IMG/VR virus record: IMGVR_UViG_3300050491_000011
DNA from: a virus
Lineage: Duplodnaviria > Caudoviricetes
Length of the DNA stretch: 64,000 bases
Strand: one strand, 5' to 3'
Position numbers and translations under genes: made by a program. Positions 2,168 through 25,581 of this stretch are shown here, piece after piece. A model generated the notes under the pieces. It was not told where the DNA came from and searched no databases. It saw only the letters and a list, made by a program, of their open reading frames with translations. The first letter of the stretch is position 1; each line of letters starts with the position of its first letter.

Positions 2168-3529
2168 TTAAGCGGCTTTGGAGTACGCCGATGCACTGGC
2201 GCTGACGTAGCCATCGAGTGCTGACTTAACAGCCCAGATAGTTTTGATCAACTTAGGAGGAAGCAACCCAAGATCGTAGACGATGTCAACGGCCAATTTG
2301 TAGGCGTCGCACGCTTCTTTGATCGAGGTGGTATCTTCGTTGGCCGCTTTCTTCTTGGTGTACAGCGAGTTAAGCTGGGCACTCATGTCGTAAAGCTTGG
2401 TAGCCAGACCGTCGATTTCTTCAGCAGCATCCTGAAGAGGTTTGATGAAGTCACCAACATGGTCGGTCCACGCCGGAACTGCATCGGTGTAGTCTTCCAT
2501 ATCCTGAGCGCTGAGAGCTGGATATTCACCACCCTCGGCTTCTTTGTGAACGACCATAGCGCTGGTCAAGTTCATGGTGTTGCCTTTCTTCTCGCCAGTC
2601 AGGACGATGTCGATGTTCTGGCAGATGTTGAACTCGACTTCCTTGTTCTGCGAAAGGCCGACCGCATTAACCAGAGCAGTGAACACACGAGGGAGTTCGC
2701 TTTCCTTGGTAGGTTGTACGCCATTTACGATCTGACTTACCTTCCGAACGATCTCCAGAACGCGGGAAGCGGATTCCTTGCCGAAACCTTTGAGATTCTT
2801 GAGGGTCTCAGTAGGCTTCTTAGCCCGGCCGTCTTGTCCGATGATGAACTTCGGATCTTTGACAGTGACCTTAGTAGAACTGGAAGGCGCAGCAGGCTTC
2901 GGAGTTTCCTTTACCGGCTCTGGTTTCTTCTCAGGTTCTTTCTTCGATGCAGGAGAGACTGGTTTCTCAGCCGGCTTCTCAACAGGCTTCTCCGGTTCCT
3001 TTTCCTCTGTAGGTTCAGGTTCCGACTTACCGTTAACGGCGTCATCAACCTTCTTCTTCAGAGCTTCGTTCTTTGCCTGGTCGTTCTTCTTGAACAGACC
3101 GAGCTTTTGGAAGAAGGCTTTCAACATCCCCATCAGAGTAGTGAAGGTACGCTTGATCCATGCCCAGATCTTGCCGATGAACCCCTCACTCTTCTCCTCA
3201 GCTTCCGTGGAGTAGTTCTCCTCGTTACTGGATTCAAAGGACGGTGCAATCATCGTGACTGGAAGATCGAGATCCGACGCCATCAACACCGACTCCATGC
3301 AGACACGATAAAGCGCAGCACGCTCTACGTCCATGGATGGCTTATCTTTGAGGAAAGCATCGCGAATGTTCGTCACCGAAGCGAGTGCTGTACGAGCGCG
3401 AACAATCTGGTTTTGAAGCGCATCGATCTCACGGAACTCCGATTGGAGATCCACGCTTTCGAAGCTATAAGTAGCCTCTACTCGTTCGATGTTATTAGTA
3501 GCAAGTTGTTTCAAAATGCTCGCGGTCAT
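2168..3529 (-). CDS. phiKZ-like internal head protein paralog with Lys/Pro/Glu-rich linker
   Basis: MTASILKQL start; IAPSFES...NYSTEAEEKSEGFIGKIWAW block; KPEE/KPAE low-complexity segment. Confidence 0.75.
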   Translation of the reverse strand: MTASILKQLATNNIERVEATYSFESVDLQSEFREIDALQNQIVRARTALASVTNIRDAFLKDKPSMDVERAALYRVCMESVLMASDLDLPVTMIAPSFESSNEENYSTEAEEKSEGFIGKIWAWIKRTFTTLMGMLKAFFQKLGLFKKNDQAKNEALKKKVDDAVNGKSEPEPTEEKEPEKPVEKPAEKPVSPASKKEPEKKPEPVKETPKPAAPSSSTKVTVKDPKFIIGQDGRAKKPTETLKNLKGFGKESASRVLEIVRKVSQIVNGVQPTKESELPRVFTALVNAVGLSQNKEVEFNICQNIDIVLTGEKKGNTMNLTSAMVVHKEAEGGEYPALSAQDMEDYTDAVPAWTDHVGDFIKPLQDAAEEIDGLATKLYDMSAQLNSLYTKKKAANEDTTSIKEACDAYKLAVDIVYDLGLLPPKLIKTIWAVKSALDGYVSASASAYSKAA

Positions 3530-3622
3530 TTTACACACTCGACTAGAGTATTATGCAAAGATCGAGAAGACCTCGCTCGGCGGATTATTACTTACATAAG
3601 ATCTCCCTAAAGGAACGATTAA

Positions 3623-3970
3623 ATGCATATTGGATCGGTCCACGATGTTGAGTTTGAGACGACTCCACACGGCAATGTAATCCCTGTTCTGAAGATTCAT
3701 TCTGGAAGAACAAAGGTCGACTGGGTGTTACCGAATATCCATGTCCTTCAAGAAATGAAGTTGTGGATGGCTGACATCGTCTGCATGACTGAGAAAGCCG
3801 GTAAGACTAGCATTGAGGTTCTTCATGAGAATCGCCCTATAGATGCTAGTCCAGTAGAGTTACCACACGTCTGCCAATCGTGTGGAGAAGAACTCCACAT
3901 CTATCTAGAACGGCGACTGATCGTCAAGTGCGTTAATCAGTCTGGTTGTAAGGCTCAGAATGTAGGATGA
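3623..3970 (+). CDS. stand-alone OB-fold + zinc-finger fragment resembling NAD-dependent DNA ligase (LigA)
   Basis: GNVIPVL, LPNIHVLQEMKLWMADIV and ELPHVCQSCGEEL...KCVNQSGCKAQ parallel the LigA OB (G.ITPVA, TLHN...I.IGD.V) and Zn-finger (P..CP.CG..L...C.N..C.AQ) motifs. Confidence 0.55.
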   Translation: MHIGSVHDVEFETTPHGNVIPVLKIHSGRTKVDWVLPNIHVLQEMKLWMADIVCMTEKAGKTSIEVLHENRPIDASPVELPHVCQSCGEELHIYLERRLIVKCVNQSGCKAQNVG

Positions 3971-23721: not shown

Positions 23722-23795
23722 GTTCGAACAGCGCCGCGCGTAGCCGCCTCTTCGTAGTGCCGCCGCCCTCTGGGCATTTCGCGGCCTGTTCGAAC
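23722..23795 (+). ncRNA. structured RNA of unknown class (16-bp closing helix)
   Basis: GTTCGAACAG/CTGTTCGAAC and GCCGCG/CGCGGC pair perfectly, enclosing 41 nt; 5 nt before tRNA-Asn. Confidence 0.5.
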
Positions 23796-23800
23796 TCTAT

Positions 23801-23877
23801 TCCGCGATAGCTCAGTTTGGTAGAGCAAACGGCTGTTAACCGTTGGGTCCCTGGTTCGAGTCCAGGTCGTGGAGCCA
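23801..23877 (+). tRNA. tRNA-Asn(GTT)
   Basis: Canonical cloverleaf; AACGG-CTGTTAA-CCGTT anticodon arm; G73; encoded CCA. Confidence 0.95.
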
Positions 23878-23892: not shown

Positions 23893-23969
23893 GGTGAACT
23901 TAGCTCAGTTGGTAGAGCAGCGGCAGGCTTAGCTGTGTGTCCTAGGTTCGATTCCTGGAGTTCACCCCA
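23893..23969 (+). tRNA. non-canonical tRNA: His-type G-1:C73 acceptor, GCT triplet in an aberrant loop
   Basis: G-GTGAACT/AGTTCAC-C-CCA; normal D and T arms; anticodon loop AGGCTTA lacks U33; short variable loop, so not a Ser-type body. Confidence 0.7.
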
Positions 23970-24009
23970 ATTCCCCAGCATGGATGCATAGATCGAGGTT
24001 TATACATCC

Positions 24010-24684
24010 ATGTCCGTAGATATCAGTACCTATCTGATCGCTACACCGCTTCCAGTATCTGAAACTAATCCAGTCGCCTTAGAGCTGCTTGGATCTCTGG
24101 CATTGATTCAATGTCCTGAGGTTGTTTCTATGCTCGAGGACGGATCTGTTCAATTCACCGCACCTACTAAAGGTGCGTCTAGTAAGAGTACTCACCGTAC
24201 TCGAACTGAATGGAAGGAACCAGAGTACTGGGCGTTGTCTAGCGCAGCTAAACACTGGAGCCGGCAGACGATGACTGTTACTAAAGTCAACTCTGCTCAG
24301 AAGGTGGTGGTTGCACAGATTCATGTCAAGGATGCTACAACGCCTCCTTTGAAAGTGTTCTGGAACAAAGGTAAGTTGACGATGGGTTTCCGCGGTAGTT
24401 TCGCTGATCCTACAATCGTTAACTATACGCTTCACACTGACGTACCCTTGGGCGTTCCGTTCAAGATCAGTATCGGTGTGACAGCCAGCGGTTCAGTGTC
24501 TGTCAACGCGTCATGTCAAGGTGTTCCTTCTCTGAAGAACGCGTTGAAGTTGAGCAGCACTTGGTTTGACCGGGTCTTGCAGTTCCATGGTGGCGTCTAC
24601 AACCAAGTCGACTACACCGACCTTACCTCTGACGAGGATGGTTCGATCTGCATTATCAGTGAGTTGTCTACAACTCACGAATGA
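24010..24684 (+). CDS. polysaccharide lyase family 7 (alginate lyase-like)
   Basis: RTRTEW (RxE), AQIH (QIH) and FHGGVYNQ (YFKAGxYxQ variant) motifs in the right order; no signal peptide. Confidence 0.8.
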   Translation: MSVDISTYLIATPLPVSETNPVALELLGSLALIQCPEVVSMLEDGSVQFTAPTKGASSKSTHRTRTEWKEPEYWALSSAAKHWSRQTMTVTKVNSAQKVVVAQIHVKDATTPPLKVFWNKGKLTMGFRGSFADPTIVNYTLHTDVPLGVPFKISIGVTASGSVSVNASCQGVPSLKNALKLSSTWFDRVLQFHGGVYNQVDYTDLTSDEDGSICIISELSTTHE

Positions 24685-24690
24685 TTCAAT

Positions 24691-24866
24691 GACTTCTATA
24701 GCTCAGTTGGTAGAGCGCCGTTATCTCATGTGTCGCGGGTTCGAGTCCCGTCATCGCTCAATGCTGGTGTCTTTCGAGACAGATGGCAAGCGGTGTAGCT
24801 CAGATGGTAGAGCAATGAAAACATACATGACGGAGGCCAGAGGTTCAATCCCTTTTGGAAGTCCCA
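24691..24866 (+). ncRNA. nested double tRNA: His-type outer tRNA with a circularly permuted tRNA inside its anticodon loop
   Basis: 24691-98 pairs with 24856-63 (8 bp) then CCA; 24789-95 pairs with 24752-58; 24718-22 with 24829-33; 24815-18 with 24726-29. Two D arms, two T arms, UUCG linker. Confidence 0.75.
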
Positions 24867-24872
24867 ATCAAT

Positions 24873-24947
24873 GGTGCAAGCCTGCGCCCGACACGAGGAA
24901 CACGACGCTAGTCAACGTTCAGTACGTCGGCCGCAGGCGGCACCACC
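24873..24947 (+). ncRNA. rod-like structured RNA
   Basis: GGTGC/GCACC, GCCTGCG/CGCAGGC, CCGAC/GTCGG and an inner GAC-GCTA-GTC hairpin; ends in ACC. Confidence 0.5.
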
Positions 24948-24953
24948 CTTTAC

Positions 24954-25030
24954 GCAGCCATAGTTCAGTTGGTTAGAATGCTCGCCTGTCACGCGAGAGG
25001 TCGGGGGTTCGAGTCCCCCTGGTTGCGCCA
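24954..25030 (+). tRNA. tRNA-Asp(GTC)
   Basis: Canonical cloverleaf; CTCGC-CTGTCAC-GCGAG; G73; CCA. Confidence 0.95.
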
Positions 25031-25034
25031 TATT

Positions 25035-25290
25035 GGATAAGTTGCTTCGGAGAGATCACCGAAGCGGCCTATCTAGTCCTTCGAGATAAGTAGTAAAGCC
25101 CGGCACCCATGGGAATGGGATCAGCTCGCTATACTGCTGACGGATGTAGCTCGTGTCCTTCTTGATTGTTAAGTTACGATGTAATCCGCATCAATGTAGC
25201 GAACGAGTGTCGAATATGATCCTTGCAGCGGCTGCGCCTGAGTAAATGCTGTCTTAACTTGACGTTACGGCGTCAGGAGGATCGCCCAAG
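25035..25290 (+). ncRNA. about 255-nt multi-hairpin non-coding region of unknown class
   Basis: 16-bp hairpin 25035-74, CCCAT-GGGA-ATGGG GNRA hairpin, TCAGC/GCTGA, GATCCT/AGGATC, TGACG/CGTCA; no ORF of 60 aa or more in the track. Confidence 0.45.
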
Positions 25291-25293
25291 TTT

Positions 25294-25444
25294 GAGCTTA
25301 TCAGAACGAGTGGCGGAATTGGTATACGCGGGGATCGCATCCCCAGGTCAGTGAATTGACACTGGCTGCCTGTCTATCGGTGGGCTAACGCCATTGCGGG
25401 TTCGAATCCCGCCTCTGAAAGGATAGACCATAGCTGATAAGCTC
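25294..25444 (+). ncRNA. tRNA-Leu-derived RNA without an anticodon, closed by an 11-bp terminal helix
   Basis: GAGTGGCGGAATTGGTATACGC Leu-type D arm; GGGAT-CGC-ATCCC stub; variable-arm hairpin; GCGGG-TTCGAAT-CCCGC T arm; GAGCTTATCAG/CTGATAAGCTC ends; no CCA. Confidence 0.65.
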
Positions 25445-25455
25445 AACGTTTTAAT

Positions 25456-25581
25456 GATTCCTGTAGCTCAGTAGAAGAGCGCCCCCACAACGGTTCGATT
25501 CCGTACGTACCCGACTTCGGTCTGGGTATGACTTGGAAAACATGGGGGAGGTCGGTGGTTCAATTCCATCTGGGAATCCCA
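25456..25581 (+). ncRNA. tRNA-like RNA: His-type acceptor, anticodon loop replaced by T-loop + UUCG module
   Basis: G-ATTCCTG/TGGGAAT-C-CCA; CCCCCA/TGGGGG anticodon stem enclosing ACGG-TTCGATT-CCGT and TACCC-GAC-TTCG-GTC-T-GGGTA. Confidence 0.75.

Follow-up and report, generated by a model that had tools for sequence, protein, structure and literature searches.

Within a 64,000-nucleotide window from a giant soil phage, we found 3 tRNA-shaped RNA genes on the plus strand, here termed el1, el2, and el3, which carry the acceptor end of a bacterial tRNA-His and lack a His anticodon (Table 1). In our estimate, chances are even that they encode stable tRNA mimics without a decoding function, which have deliberately preserved this end; as judged from their sequences, they are probably matured by host enzymes in the manner of tRNA-His and are probable, or at least possible, targets of histidylation by host enzymes.

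Table 1. Positions in the window of the 3 elements, their parts, and the adjacent canonical tRNA genes.
Feature	Position	Strand	Description
tRNA-Asn(GUU)	23801..23877	+	Canonical; U-1, G73, CCA; el1 comes next
el1	23893..23969	+	77-nt cloverleaf; normal D and T arms; without long variable arm
el2	24691..24866	+	176-nt nested double cloverleaf; MFE fold and RNAalifold consensus
el2 outer acceptor with G-1:C73	24691-24698/24856-24863	+	
el2 outer D arm	24701-24716	+	
el2 outer anticodon-type stem	24718-24722/24829-24833	+	
el2 inner module	24723..24828	+	Circularly permuted tRNA-like unit replacing the anticodon loop
el2 inner 4-bp stem	24726-24729 with 24815-24818	+	3/4 pairs compensatory
el2 inner T arm	24735-24751	+	
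el2 inner acceptor-like 6-bp stem	24752-24757/24790-24795	+	3/6 pairs compensatory
el2 inner variable cap	24758-24789	+	31 nt, 6 nt, or 11 nt depending on genome
el2 inner D arm	24798-24813	+	
el2 inner A-rich single strand	24819-24828	+	
el2 outer variable loop	24834-24838	+	
el2 outer T arm	24839-24855	+	
tRNA-Asp(GUC)	24954..25030	+	Canonical; C-1, G73, CCA
el3	25456..25581	+	126-nt cloverleaf frame
el3 acceptor with G-1:C73	25456-25463/25571-25578	+	
el3 D arm	25466-25480	+	
el3 stem CCCCCA/UGGGGG	25482-25487/25543-25548	+	
el3 insert	25488-25542	+	55 nt; replaces the anticodon loop
el3 T arm	25554-25570	+	

Direct reading of the letters confirmed the original prediction of 3 RNAs with an 8-bp acceptor, G-1:C73, and an encoded CCA. 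In el1, these are G23893, GTGAACT (23894-23900), AGTTCAC (23959-23965), C23966, and CCA (23967-23969), i.e., the acceptor GUGAACU/AGUUCAC, which is preceded by U-2 and closed by G-1:C73. The corresponding letters are G24691, ACTTCTA (24692-24698), TGGAAGT (24856-24862), C24863, and CCA (24864-24866) for el2, with 1 U.G pair, and G25456, ATTCCTG (25457-25463), TGGGAAT (25571-25577), C25578, and CCA (25579-25581) for el3, with 2 G.U pairs. The predicted lack of a His anticodon holds as well: the el1 loop reads N-GGCUU-N, el2 and el3 are devoid of a 7-nt anticodon loop, and GUG, the anticodon needed for CAY, is absent from all 3, so that these RNAs cannot decode His codons.

The same elements were found in 5 related phage sequences, resulting in 17 copies over 6 genomes with a nucleotide divergence of roughly 13-20%. 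G-1, C73, CCA, and U-2 are invariant in 17/17 copies, and AAT-G or CAT-G stands ahead of each of them. Furthermore, no variants at these positions were listed in 4 soil and digester metagenome runs, by which the region was partly covered. Together with the compensatory changes in the stems (see below), the fixed end features indicate that these RNAs are conserved and structurally constrained. U-2, present in every copy, is a part of the signature beyond the G-1:C73 and CCA that had been pointed out originally. According to both MFE and comparison, el1, el2, and el3 adopt the frame of a tRNA, in which the elbow nucleotides are intact, and RNAalifold found the G-1:C73 pair unaided for el2 and el3. 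Among the canonical tRNA genes of related phages, such an end is rare. G at -1 occurs in 3/58 distinct genes from related phage loci, C73 in 1/58 (1/50 in a second count), a tRNA-His, and the pairing of G-1 with C73 is confined to tRNA-His. Avoidance of EF-Tu via the T-stem pairs 49:65, 50:64, and 51:63 was considered and rejected, as the elements are no outliers in comparison to 50 canonical phage tRNAs and A:U at 51:63 is frequent in either group.

For el1, ARAGORN and Rfam score a tRNA (46 bits) with the loop AGGCTTA, labeled "Ser GCT." The anticodon stem GCGGC/GCUGU closes a 7-nt loop, AGGCUUA, with G33 and U37, whereas U33 and a purine at position 37 are near-universal in tRNAs. Both G33 and U37 are fixed across all el1 copies; the loop core GGCUU is fixed in 5 orthologues, in which positions 32 and 38 vary, and comparison of the orthologues revealed compensatory changes in the acceptor, anticodon, and T stems. 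The acceptor end is identical to the tRNA-His of relatives at 11-12/15 positions, while the body matches the second tRNA-Asn (tRNA-Asn2) of relatives at 46-48 of 58-59 positions, and el1 occupies the place that is syntenic to tRNA-Asn2. Thus, el1 looks like a His end that has been acquired or retained on a non-His body.

The pairing of el2 is intact throughout the 6 genomes (246/246 pair cells, with 9 pairs altered on both sides). Its inner module follows the order known from YrlA-type Y RNAs of bacteria and phages (RF02553; PMC4201824), namely T arm, acceptor-like stem, D arm, and closing stem, and the Rfam YrlA model matches it with 43.4 bits. However, this is below the gathering score of 69, and in contrast to YrlA, the module of el2 is surrounded by a complete tRNA frame that ends in CCA. 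M. smegmatis YrlA is cleaved by RNase P and acquires a CCA, and a Ro60 gene usually lies within 4 kb of the Y RNA gene (PMC4201824). Since Ro60 was found neither in the phage nor in its complete relative, and given the low score, we rejected el2 as a YrlA/Y RNA. The Ro-binding motif GNCGAAN0-1G is missing from el2, which has no CGAA. Adjacent tRNAs also give weak YrlA matches (22 bits), in line with a published warning about tandem tRNAs (PMC4201824).

In el3, 207/210 pair cells are paired over the 6 genomes, with 3 two-sided changes, and the orthologue of the complete relative scores 48 bits against the tRNA model. The insert holds a T-arm-like hairpin (ACGG-UUCGAUU-CCGU), a UUCG-capped 8-bp stem, and the single strand UGACUUGGAAAACA. 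Furthermore, UGUGAC in 3 el3 copies (L002, L003, and L086) equals positions 33-38 of the tRNA-His loop of relatives and is a possible relic of it. In their outer frames, el2 and el3 resemble paralogues, and the 3 cases therefore amount to at most 2 independent lineages. This qualifies the original argument that acceptors that differ while pairing is kept point to selection: it is supported by el1, with its His-type end on an Asn-like body, and weakened for the apparent paralogues el2 and el3.

Besides tRNA-Asn(GUU), tRNA-Asp(GUC) is the sole other decoding tRNA of the phage, and the array is highly plastic, with units gained or lost between relatives: the lyase gene is missing in L085, and a 419-bp block is missing in L084 and 1 metagenome contig. 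No public RNA run was listed as containing this DNA. When IMG/VR, JGI metagenomes, and GTDB genomes were scanned for exact patterns, only the 5 relatives emerged as further carriers, and no bacterial genome had the elements; cultured phages share with the carriers only ordinary tRNAs and the lyase gene. In the genome of the phage (G000), we found no HisRS, Thg1, TROVE (Ro60), RtcB, tRNA splicing endonuclease, Rnl2-type ligase, or CCA enzyme. Because this genome is about 75% complete, gene absence from it alone is weak evidence; HisRS, TROVE, and RtcB were likewise not found in the complete relative (G001), and TROVE had no match in 5 other relatives. A canonical tRNA-His is absent from the complete relative too, with no tRNA matches outside its array. 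Among the neighboring proteins, a PL7 alginate lyase was the only Pfam match, and PHROGs yielded no more than a weak RNAP-beta-like match and 1 family without an assigned function; neither search revealed a candidate partner protein.

As all end features of tRNA-His have been kept, maturation like that of tRNA-His is probable. On the basis of established knowledge, host RNase P would separate U-2 from G-1 by a cut like that in pre-tRNA-His and leave a 5'-monophosphate G-1 on an 8-bp stem. Indeed, G-1:C73 and U-2 have been reported to shift the RNase P cut such that G-1 is retained (PMC3245924). Mini- and microhelices accept histidine on the strength of G-1:C73 alone, and histidylation depends critically on the 5' monophosphate of G-1 (PMC9976931); these reports agree with the original designation of this pair as the key HisRS determinant. 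Since the specificity of HisRS derives mostly from the acceptor end and minihelices are charged, host HisRS should be able to histidylate the mimics, and a phage HisRS or Thg1 would not be needed. Charging would be less efficient than for tRNA-His, as the anticodon is a secondary determinant for E. coli HisRS (PMC9976931). We suggest, less firmly, that the tRNA frame might act as a natural "tRNA scaffold" that provides precise ends and nuclease resistance and perhaps also protects the aminoacylated 3' end. The anticodon-side modules, i.e., the second tRNA elbow of el2, the T-loop hairpins of el3, and the GGCUU loop of el1, might then engage a host or phage factor recognizing tRNA shape, e.g., as decoys. 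A His identity would be a natural choice for such RNAs, as it is among the few identities that survive the loss of the anticodon. A more far-reaching version, which we consider unlikely, is that these are histidine-charged RNAs that never enter decoding, in which the His end was selected as an anticodon-independent identity and the mimics act on the host. Charged mimics might then tie up HisRS, EF-Tu, or a tRNA-directed defense enzyme; alternatively, histidine might be donated in a non-ribosomal reaction. A bait for CCA-end toxins was a further possible role in the original prediction.

It is possible, though on balance rather doubtful, that the elements serve only as tRNA-shaped carriers, with histidylation absent or irrelevant and G-1:C73 retained because it aids folding or processing by RNase P, makes the 8-bp end extra stable, or prevents charging by other synthetases. 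Positions -1 and 73 are able to pair in all units of the array (C:G in tRNA-Asp and in the element at 25590-25724, U.G in tRNA-Asn), as they are in 26/50 canonical tRNAs of relatives, so the eighth pair may serve array processing in general. Moreover, insert-bearing tRNA look-alikes in relatives (L007, L016, and L022) carry A73 or G73, indicating that payload carriers need no His ends. Both el2 and el3 start with A1:U72, and the tRNA-His genes seen in related phages start with GUG or UUG. Their end may also simply be inherited, given the probable paralogy of el2 and el3 and the possible origin of el3 from a remodeled tRNA-His. However, the combination of G-1 with C73 is otherwise exclusive to tRNA-His and, together with U-2 and CCA, absolutely conserved, and by the published rules of identity, HisRS should accept an end of this kind as a substrate, "intended" or not (PMC9976931). 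A role as real decoders, with el1 as a His-accepting reader of Ser AGY codons that causes mistranslation and el2 and el3 as intron-bearing tRNA genes, is highly improbable. While ARAGORN assigns to el1 the conserved triplet GCU, the fixed G33 and U37 speak against decoding, and el2 and el3 lack an anticodon loop; the mistranslation device envisaged by the original prediction is thus unlikely. ARAGORN finds el2 and el3 only if "introns" of 99 nt and 48 nt, respectively, are allowed, and the anticodons it then assigns are unstable, namely Glu and Arg in this phage but Val in the orthologues from L002 and L003. A precedent exists in the tRNA-Tyr gene of L003, which has a large insert within its anticodon loop and no Rfam match to a group I intron at the gathering threshold. 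The inserts of el2 and el3, in turn, are themselves structured and covarying and gave no group I intron match in Rfam. The 7-nt anticodon loop is not conserved after removal of the inserts, and no splicing route was found, given the absence of splicing endonuclease, RtcB, and Rnl2-type ligase from the phage genome and of RtcB from the complete relative; we therefore rejected el2 and el3 as intron tRNA genes.

Another explanation for the letters at the 5' end is that each unit is preceded by its own late promoter of the phiKZ type (TATG, in which G is +1), such that transcription starts at G-1 and leaves a 5'-triphosphate. Late promoters of phiKZ are indeed TATG with a start at G (PMC4666361), xATG precedes el1, el2, el3, and 2 neighboring hairpins, and TATG is enriched upstream of the genes of this phage (3.15 vs 1.38 per kb). 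However, the elements have AATG or CATG and never TATG, single substitutions in TATG strongly lower transcription by the phiKZ nvRNAP (PMC4666361), AATG lacks enrichment upstream of genes, and U-2 is equally well explained as an RNase P determinant (PMC3245924), which renders this explanation very unlikely. Finally, the elements could be decaying tRNA pseudogenes that arose by recombination in a fast-changing tRNA array. The losses of the lyase gene and of the 419-bp block attest to this plasticity, but pairing is near-perfect, many changes are compensatory despite the divergence of the copies, and the ends and loop cores are invariant. Decay is already contradicted by this covariation and is hardly credible.

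Among known systems, bacterial tRNA-His shares with the elements U-2, G-1:C73, the 8-bp acceptor stem, the encoded CCA, and normal D and T arms, and the el1 acceptor is nearly identical to that of the tRNA-His genes of the related phages L009 and L076. In contrast to tRNA-His, the elements lack GUG, el1 has G33 and U37, and el2 and el3 have A1:U72 and no anticodon loop. The tRNA-like structures of plant RNA viruses that are charged with His (TLS-His) are likewise viral, mimic the tRNA-His acceptor, and have no decoding role; they are charged by host HisRS, with the N-1:N73 pair as the key to mimicry (PMC9976931, PMC8127992). However, TLS-His forms the 3' end of a genome, has a pseudoknotted acceptor, and operates in eukaryotic hosts, whereas the elements stand alone as genes of a DNA phage, encode G-1, and form true cloverleaf frames. 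The species 1 and 2 RNAs of phage T4 (rnaC and rnaD) are also stable RNAs of unknown function inside a tRNA cluster, and rnaC has a canonical T arm beside its 3' end as well as a long structured insert. Nevertheless, they have no sequence relation to the elements, the T4 record shows neither G-1:C73 nor an encoded CCA, and a second elbow is absent. The likeness to tmRNA lies in the tRNA-like acceptor/T domain, the anticodon-independent identity (Ala, G3:U70), and the replaced anticodon arm. We rejected the elements as tmRNAs, since ARAGORN found none, positions 3:70 are G:C, U:A, and U:A in el1, el2, and el3, respectively, and a tag reading frame and pseudoknots are lacking. Ponchon and Dardel reportedly engineered a "tRNA scaffold" in which the cell processes and stabilizes a payload RNA that has been inserted into the anticodon stem of a tRNA. 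While this scaffold is based on tRNA-Lys or tRNA-Met, the elements described here are natural, conserved, and provided with His-type ends.

The rules of tRNA identity are usually read as linking amino acids with anticodons. In the present case, a virus retains the full charging and processing signature of tRNA-His on 3 non-decoding RNAs, and one of the 3 contains a permuted tRNA body in addition to its own. Provided that they are histidylated, these RNAs would be to a DNA phage what the aminoacylated tRNA-like ends are to plant RNA viruses, and they would represent a naturally occurring form of the tRNA scaffold used in the laboratory. The elements thus offer an entry into what anticodon-less tRNA mimics do during phage infection, and they bear on why anticodon-independent synthetases (His, Leu, and Ala) may be those that are mimicked.

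Reading the sequence directly, we found every quoted string of the original prediction at its coordinates. The observation of G-1:C73 RNAs without a His anticodon was thereby confirmed and is extended here: in all three tRNA-shaped elements (el1, el2, and el3), G at -1 lies opposite the discriminator C73, followed by CCA, and the base at -2, which had not been considered previously, is U. G-1, C73, CCA, and U-2 are invariant in 17/17 copies from six genomes, and no variant at -1, 73, or CCA is listed in metagenome contigs, which cover the elements partially. Of 58 distinct canonical tRNA genes of related loci, three have G at -1 and one has C73; the two features coincide in a tRNA-His alone. 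All gene-encoded His identity and processing features are present and invariant in el1-el3, except for the anticodon. Canonical tRNA-His ends vary among relatives, with G-1:C73 next to a U1-C72 mismatch in locus L009 (233-310) and G-1 with A73 in locus L076 (582-659).

The array is part of a 188-kb virus contig from IMG/VR, with a completeness of about 75%, whose closest cultured kin, the jumbo Pseudomonas phage Psa21, is linked solely via the alginate lyase gene. Thymidylate synthase, ribonucleotide reductase, and a weak RNA polymerase beta-like fragment are encoded nearby (PHROGs), and the same DNA occurs in soil, rhizosphere, compost, and digester metagenomes. The lyase stop codon is located 7 nt upstream of el2; the array of locus L085 is near-identical but lacks this gene, which adjoins tRNA-Trp in other jumbo-phage relatives. 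ARAGORN and Rfam report three tRNAs in total over the array, including el1. In the complete relative genome G001, which contains locus L002, all tRNA-model matches are confined to its counterpart of this array, and canonical tRNA-His is absent among them.

Features of the RNA array and how they were identified
Feature	Coordinates	Strand	Description	Source
Array of tRNAs and elements	23.7-26.05 kb	+	2.3 kb, nearly ORF-free	
Hairpin	23722-23796		strong, conserved; directly upstream of tRNA-Asn; preceded by xATG	
tRNA-Asn (GUU)	23801-23877			ARAGORN, Rfam
el1	23893-23969	+	called as 'Ser GCU' tRNA, 23894-23969, 46 bits	ARAGORN, Rfam
PL7 alginate lyase gene	24010-24684		sole interruption of array; E 1e-41	Pfam PF08787
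el2	24691-24866	+		
el2, outer part			8-bp acceptor, D arm, 5-bp anticodon-type stem, T arm	
el2, insert at loop position			4-bp stem, T arm, 6-bp acceptor-like stem with cap, D arm	
Hairpin	24872-24946		strong, conserved; directly upstream of tRNA-Asp; preceded by xATG, followed by ACCC or GCCC	
tRNA-Asp (GUC)	24954-25030			ARAGORN, Rfam
419-bp block	25035-25453		contains hairpins	
Hairpin	25218-25290		strong, conserved; directly upstream of tRNA-Tyr in locus L002; preceded by xATG, followed by ACCC or GCCC	
tRNA-like structure	25294-25444		closed by 11-bp stem GAGCTTATCAG/CTGATAAGCTC; z-score -3.3	
el3	25456-25581	+		
el3, insert			55 nt: T-arm-like hairpin, UUCG-capped 8-bp stem, conserved single strand	
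Conserved non-coding element	25590-25724		87-95% identity to L002	
Conserved non-coding element	25734-26042		87-95% identity to L002; further T arm at 25941-25957	

El1 is a cloverleaf of ordinary length with the loop AGGCUUA. El2 and el3 appear in Rfam only as half-tRNAs (25 and 21 bits) and in ARAGORN only as tRNAs interrupted by 'introns' of 99 and 48 nt. The fold of el2 consists of one cloverleaf nested inside another, with a tRNA body in circularly permuted order as its insert; the outer frame of el3 is the same, with the stem CCCCCA/UGGGGG. The tRNA-elbow nucleotides (U8, A14, G18-G19, C48, and the T-loop) are kept in el1 and the outer frame of el2; the D loop of el3 reads AGUAGAA, without the GG pair, in window-type copies and AGUGGUA in L002-type copies. 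The inner module of el2 scored 43 bits with the Rfam YrlA model (threshold 69). It resembles YrlA in architecture but is not a member of this family, which is defined by a Ro-binding motif and a Ro60 partner (PMC4201824), since both are missing.

A protein-guided search with the lyase as query yielded 80 viral loci, two of which (L002 and L003) contain the elements, and an exact-pattern scan of metagenomes added the carriers L084, L085, and L086; six genomes were compared. For el2, 246/246 pair cells are paired, with changes on both sides in nine pairs, located in the outer anticodon-type and T stems and in two inner stems: the 4-bp stem (3 of 4 pairs) and the acceptor-like stem (3 of 6), whose cap measures 31, 6, or 11 nt. 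The corresponding numbers for el3 are 207/210 cells and three two-sided changes. In el1, every stem is retained and the central loop GGCUU is fixed, with positions 32 and 38 variable. RNAalifold reproduced these structures, including the -1:73 pair, from the alignments alone, and metagenome contigs hold a second el2 haplotype whose changes are also paired. Because pairing is kept across stem changes and haplotypes while the end features do not vary, we rejected a reading of the elements as pseudogenes.

The original prediction further argued for selection from three independent acceptor stems. This is weakened for el2 and el3, which are probably paralogues judging by their outer frames (shared A1:U72, G26 past the D arm, variable loop AGGUC, and T-loop UUCAAU; AGGCC replaces AGGUC in el2 of the window and of L084), and strengthened for el1. 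The latter occupies the exact site of the second tRNA-Asn in L009/L076, which its body matches at 46-48 of 58-59 positions (39-41/59 for tRNA-His), and its acceptor end matches the tRNA-His of these loci at 11-12/15. This combination of a His-type end, an Asn-type body, and a rewritten anticodon loop suggests that the end itself has been under selection. In L002, L003, and L086, el3 contains UGUGAC, the six bases found at 33-38 in the anticodon loop of the relatives' tRNA-His; as the counterpart of G36 is a covarying stem base, the motif can be no more than an ancestral relic.

Further RNA elements accompany el1-el3. In the hairpin preceding tRNA-Asp, a compensatory change turns GGTGC/GCACC into GATGC/GCATC; the fold z-score for 24867-24953 is -5.1. 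L084 and one soil contig lack the 419-bp block, with 25034 joined to 25454; the tRNA-like structure within this block combines a tRNA-Leu-like D arm and a canonical T arm with a stem of 3-5-nt loop at the anticodon place, and the corresponding site in L002 holds an intact tRNA-Tyr. The element following el3 is a non-His-type relative of el2/el3, as indicated by its canonical T arm, 3' end ACTCGGG-G-CCA, possible C-1:G73, and long structured insert. Other tRNA frames with structured anticodon-loop inserts occur in related jumbo phages at L007:5538-5649, L016:6311-6413, L022:5225-5354, and L002:3876-3963; those of L007 and L016 are both of the form CC-hairpin-ACCAU, show compensatory acceptor changes, and are not His-type (A73-CCA, C at -1). 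In L003, some 650 nt (roughly 3157-3806) are inserted in the anticodon loop of tRNA-Tyr(GUA) (3124-3852; intact in L002, 5227-5312), and Rfam detects no group I intron there at the gathering threshold. The 3' part of this insert reads as an ORF with a PD-(D/E)xK-like motif (YYPDFF...IEVKG) and ends in the 3' anticodon-stem strand of the tRNA.

Bacterial histidine identity rests chiefly on G-1 and C73, with the anticodon as a secondary contributor; HisRS accepts G-1:C73 13-bp minihelices and 8-bp microhelices, transfer of the pair to an alanine minihelix converts the latter, the 5' monophosphate critical for charging is held in position by the G-1 base, and C73 conflicts with the discriminator requirements listed for other bacterial identities (PMC9976931). 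Furthermore, G-1:C73 and uridine at -2 promote a shifted RNase P cut that retains G-1 (PMC3245924). Host RNase P would thus cut el1-el3 after U-2, leaving pG-1 on an 8-bp stem; with CCA already encoded, no addition would be required, and the end may be chargeable by HisRS. The RNAs would be unable to decode, as el1 lacks U33 and a purine at 37 and el2 and el3 lack an anticodon loop, and the tRNA frame would then carry the anticodon-side modules. No HisRS or Ro60 gene was found in the contig or in five to six relatives, including the complete 254-kb G001, and the contig contains no Thg1, tRNA splicing endonuclease, Rnl2-type ligase, or CCA enzyme; RtcB is present in two more distant relatives but was not found in the contig or G001. 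The elements must therefore depend on host enzymes.

We give about an even chance to el1-el3 being non-decoding mimics that are processed like tRNA-His and competent for HisRS. The main rival, a His-type end kept for processing and stability alone, is less likely; in its favour, -1 can pair with 73 in each array unit and the insert-bearing look-alikes of related phages have A73 or G73. The proposal that G-1 marks the start of a phiKZ-type late promoter is weak: such promoters read TATG, the G being the first transcribed base (PMC4666361), whereas the elements are preceded by AATG or CATG and upstream-of-gene enrichment was seen for TATG only. Words enriched upstream of ORFs in the contig are (C)TTTATGC(T) (about 7-8-fold), resembling this late motif, and (A/C)ACATTAC (about 8-18-fold), reminiscent of the phiKZ middle TTAC motif.

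The interpretation as His-type non-decoding mimics is plausible, and the constant features of the modules (the invariant pentanucleotide of el1 and the extra elbow or T-loop of el2 and el3) point to binding of a factor recognising tRNA shape; any particular downstream role would be far less probable. Our literature search returned no description of free-standing phage genes whose RNAs have tRNA-His ends but lack an anticodon. Among genomic analogies, the closest are T4 rnaC, with a canonical T arm close to its 3' end, and rnaD, two stable RNAs without an assigned role that are encoded in a phage tRNA cluster; in function, the tRNA-like structure by which plant RNA viruses accept histidine comes nearest. 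We regard el1-el3 as a variant on the theme of tRNA mimicry.
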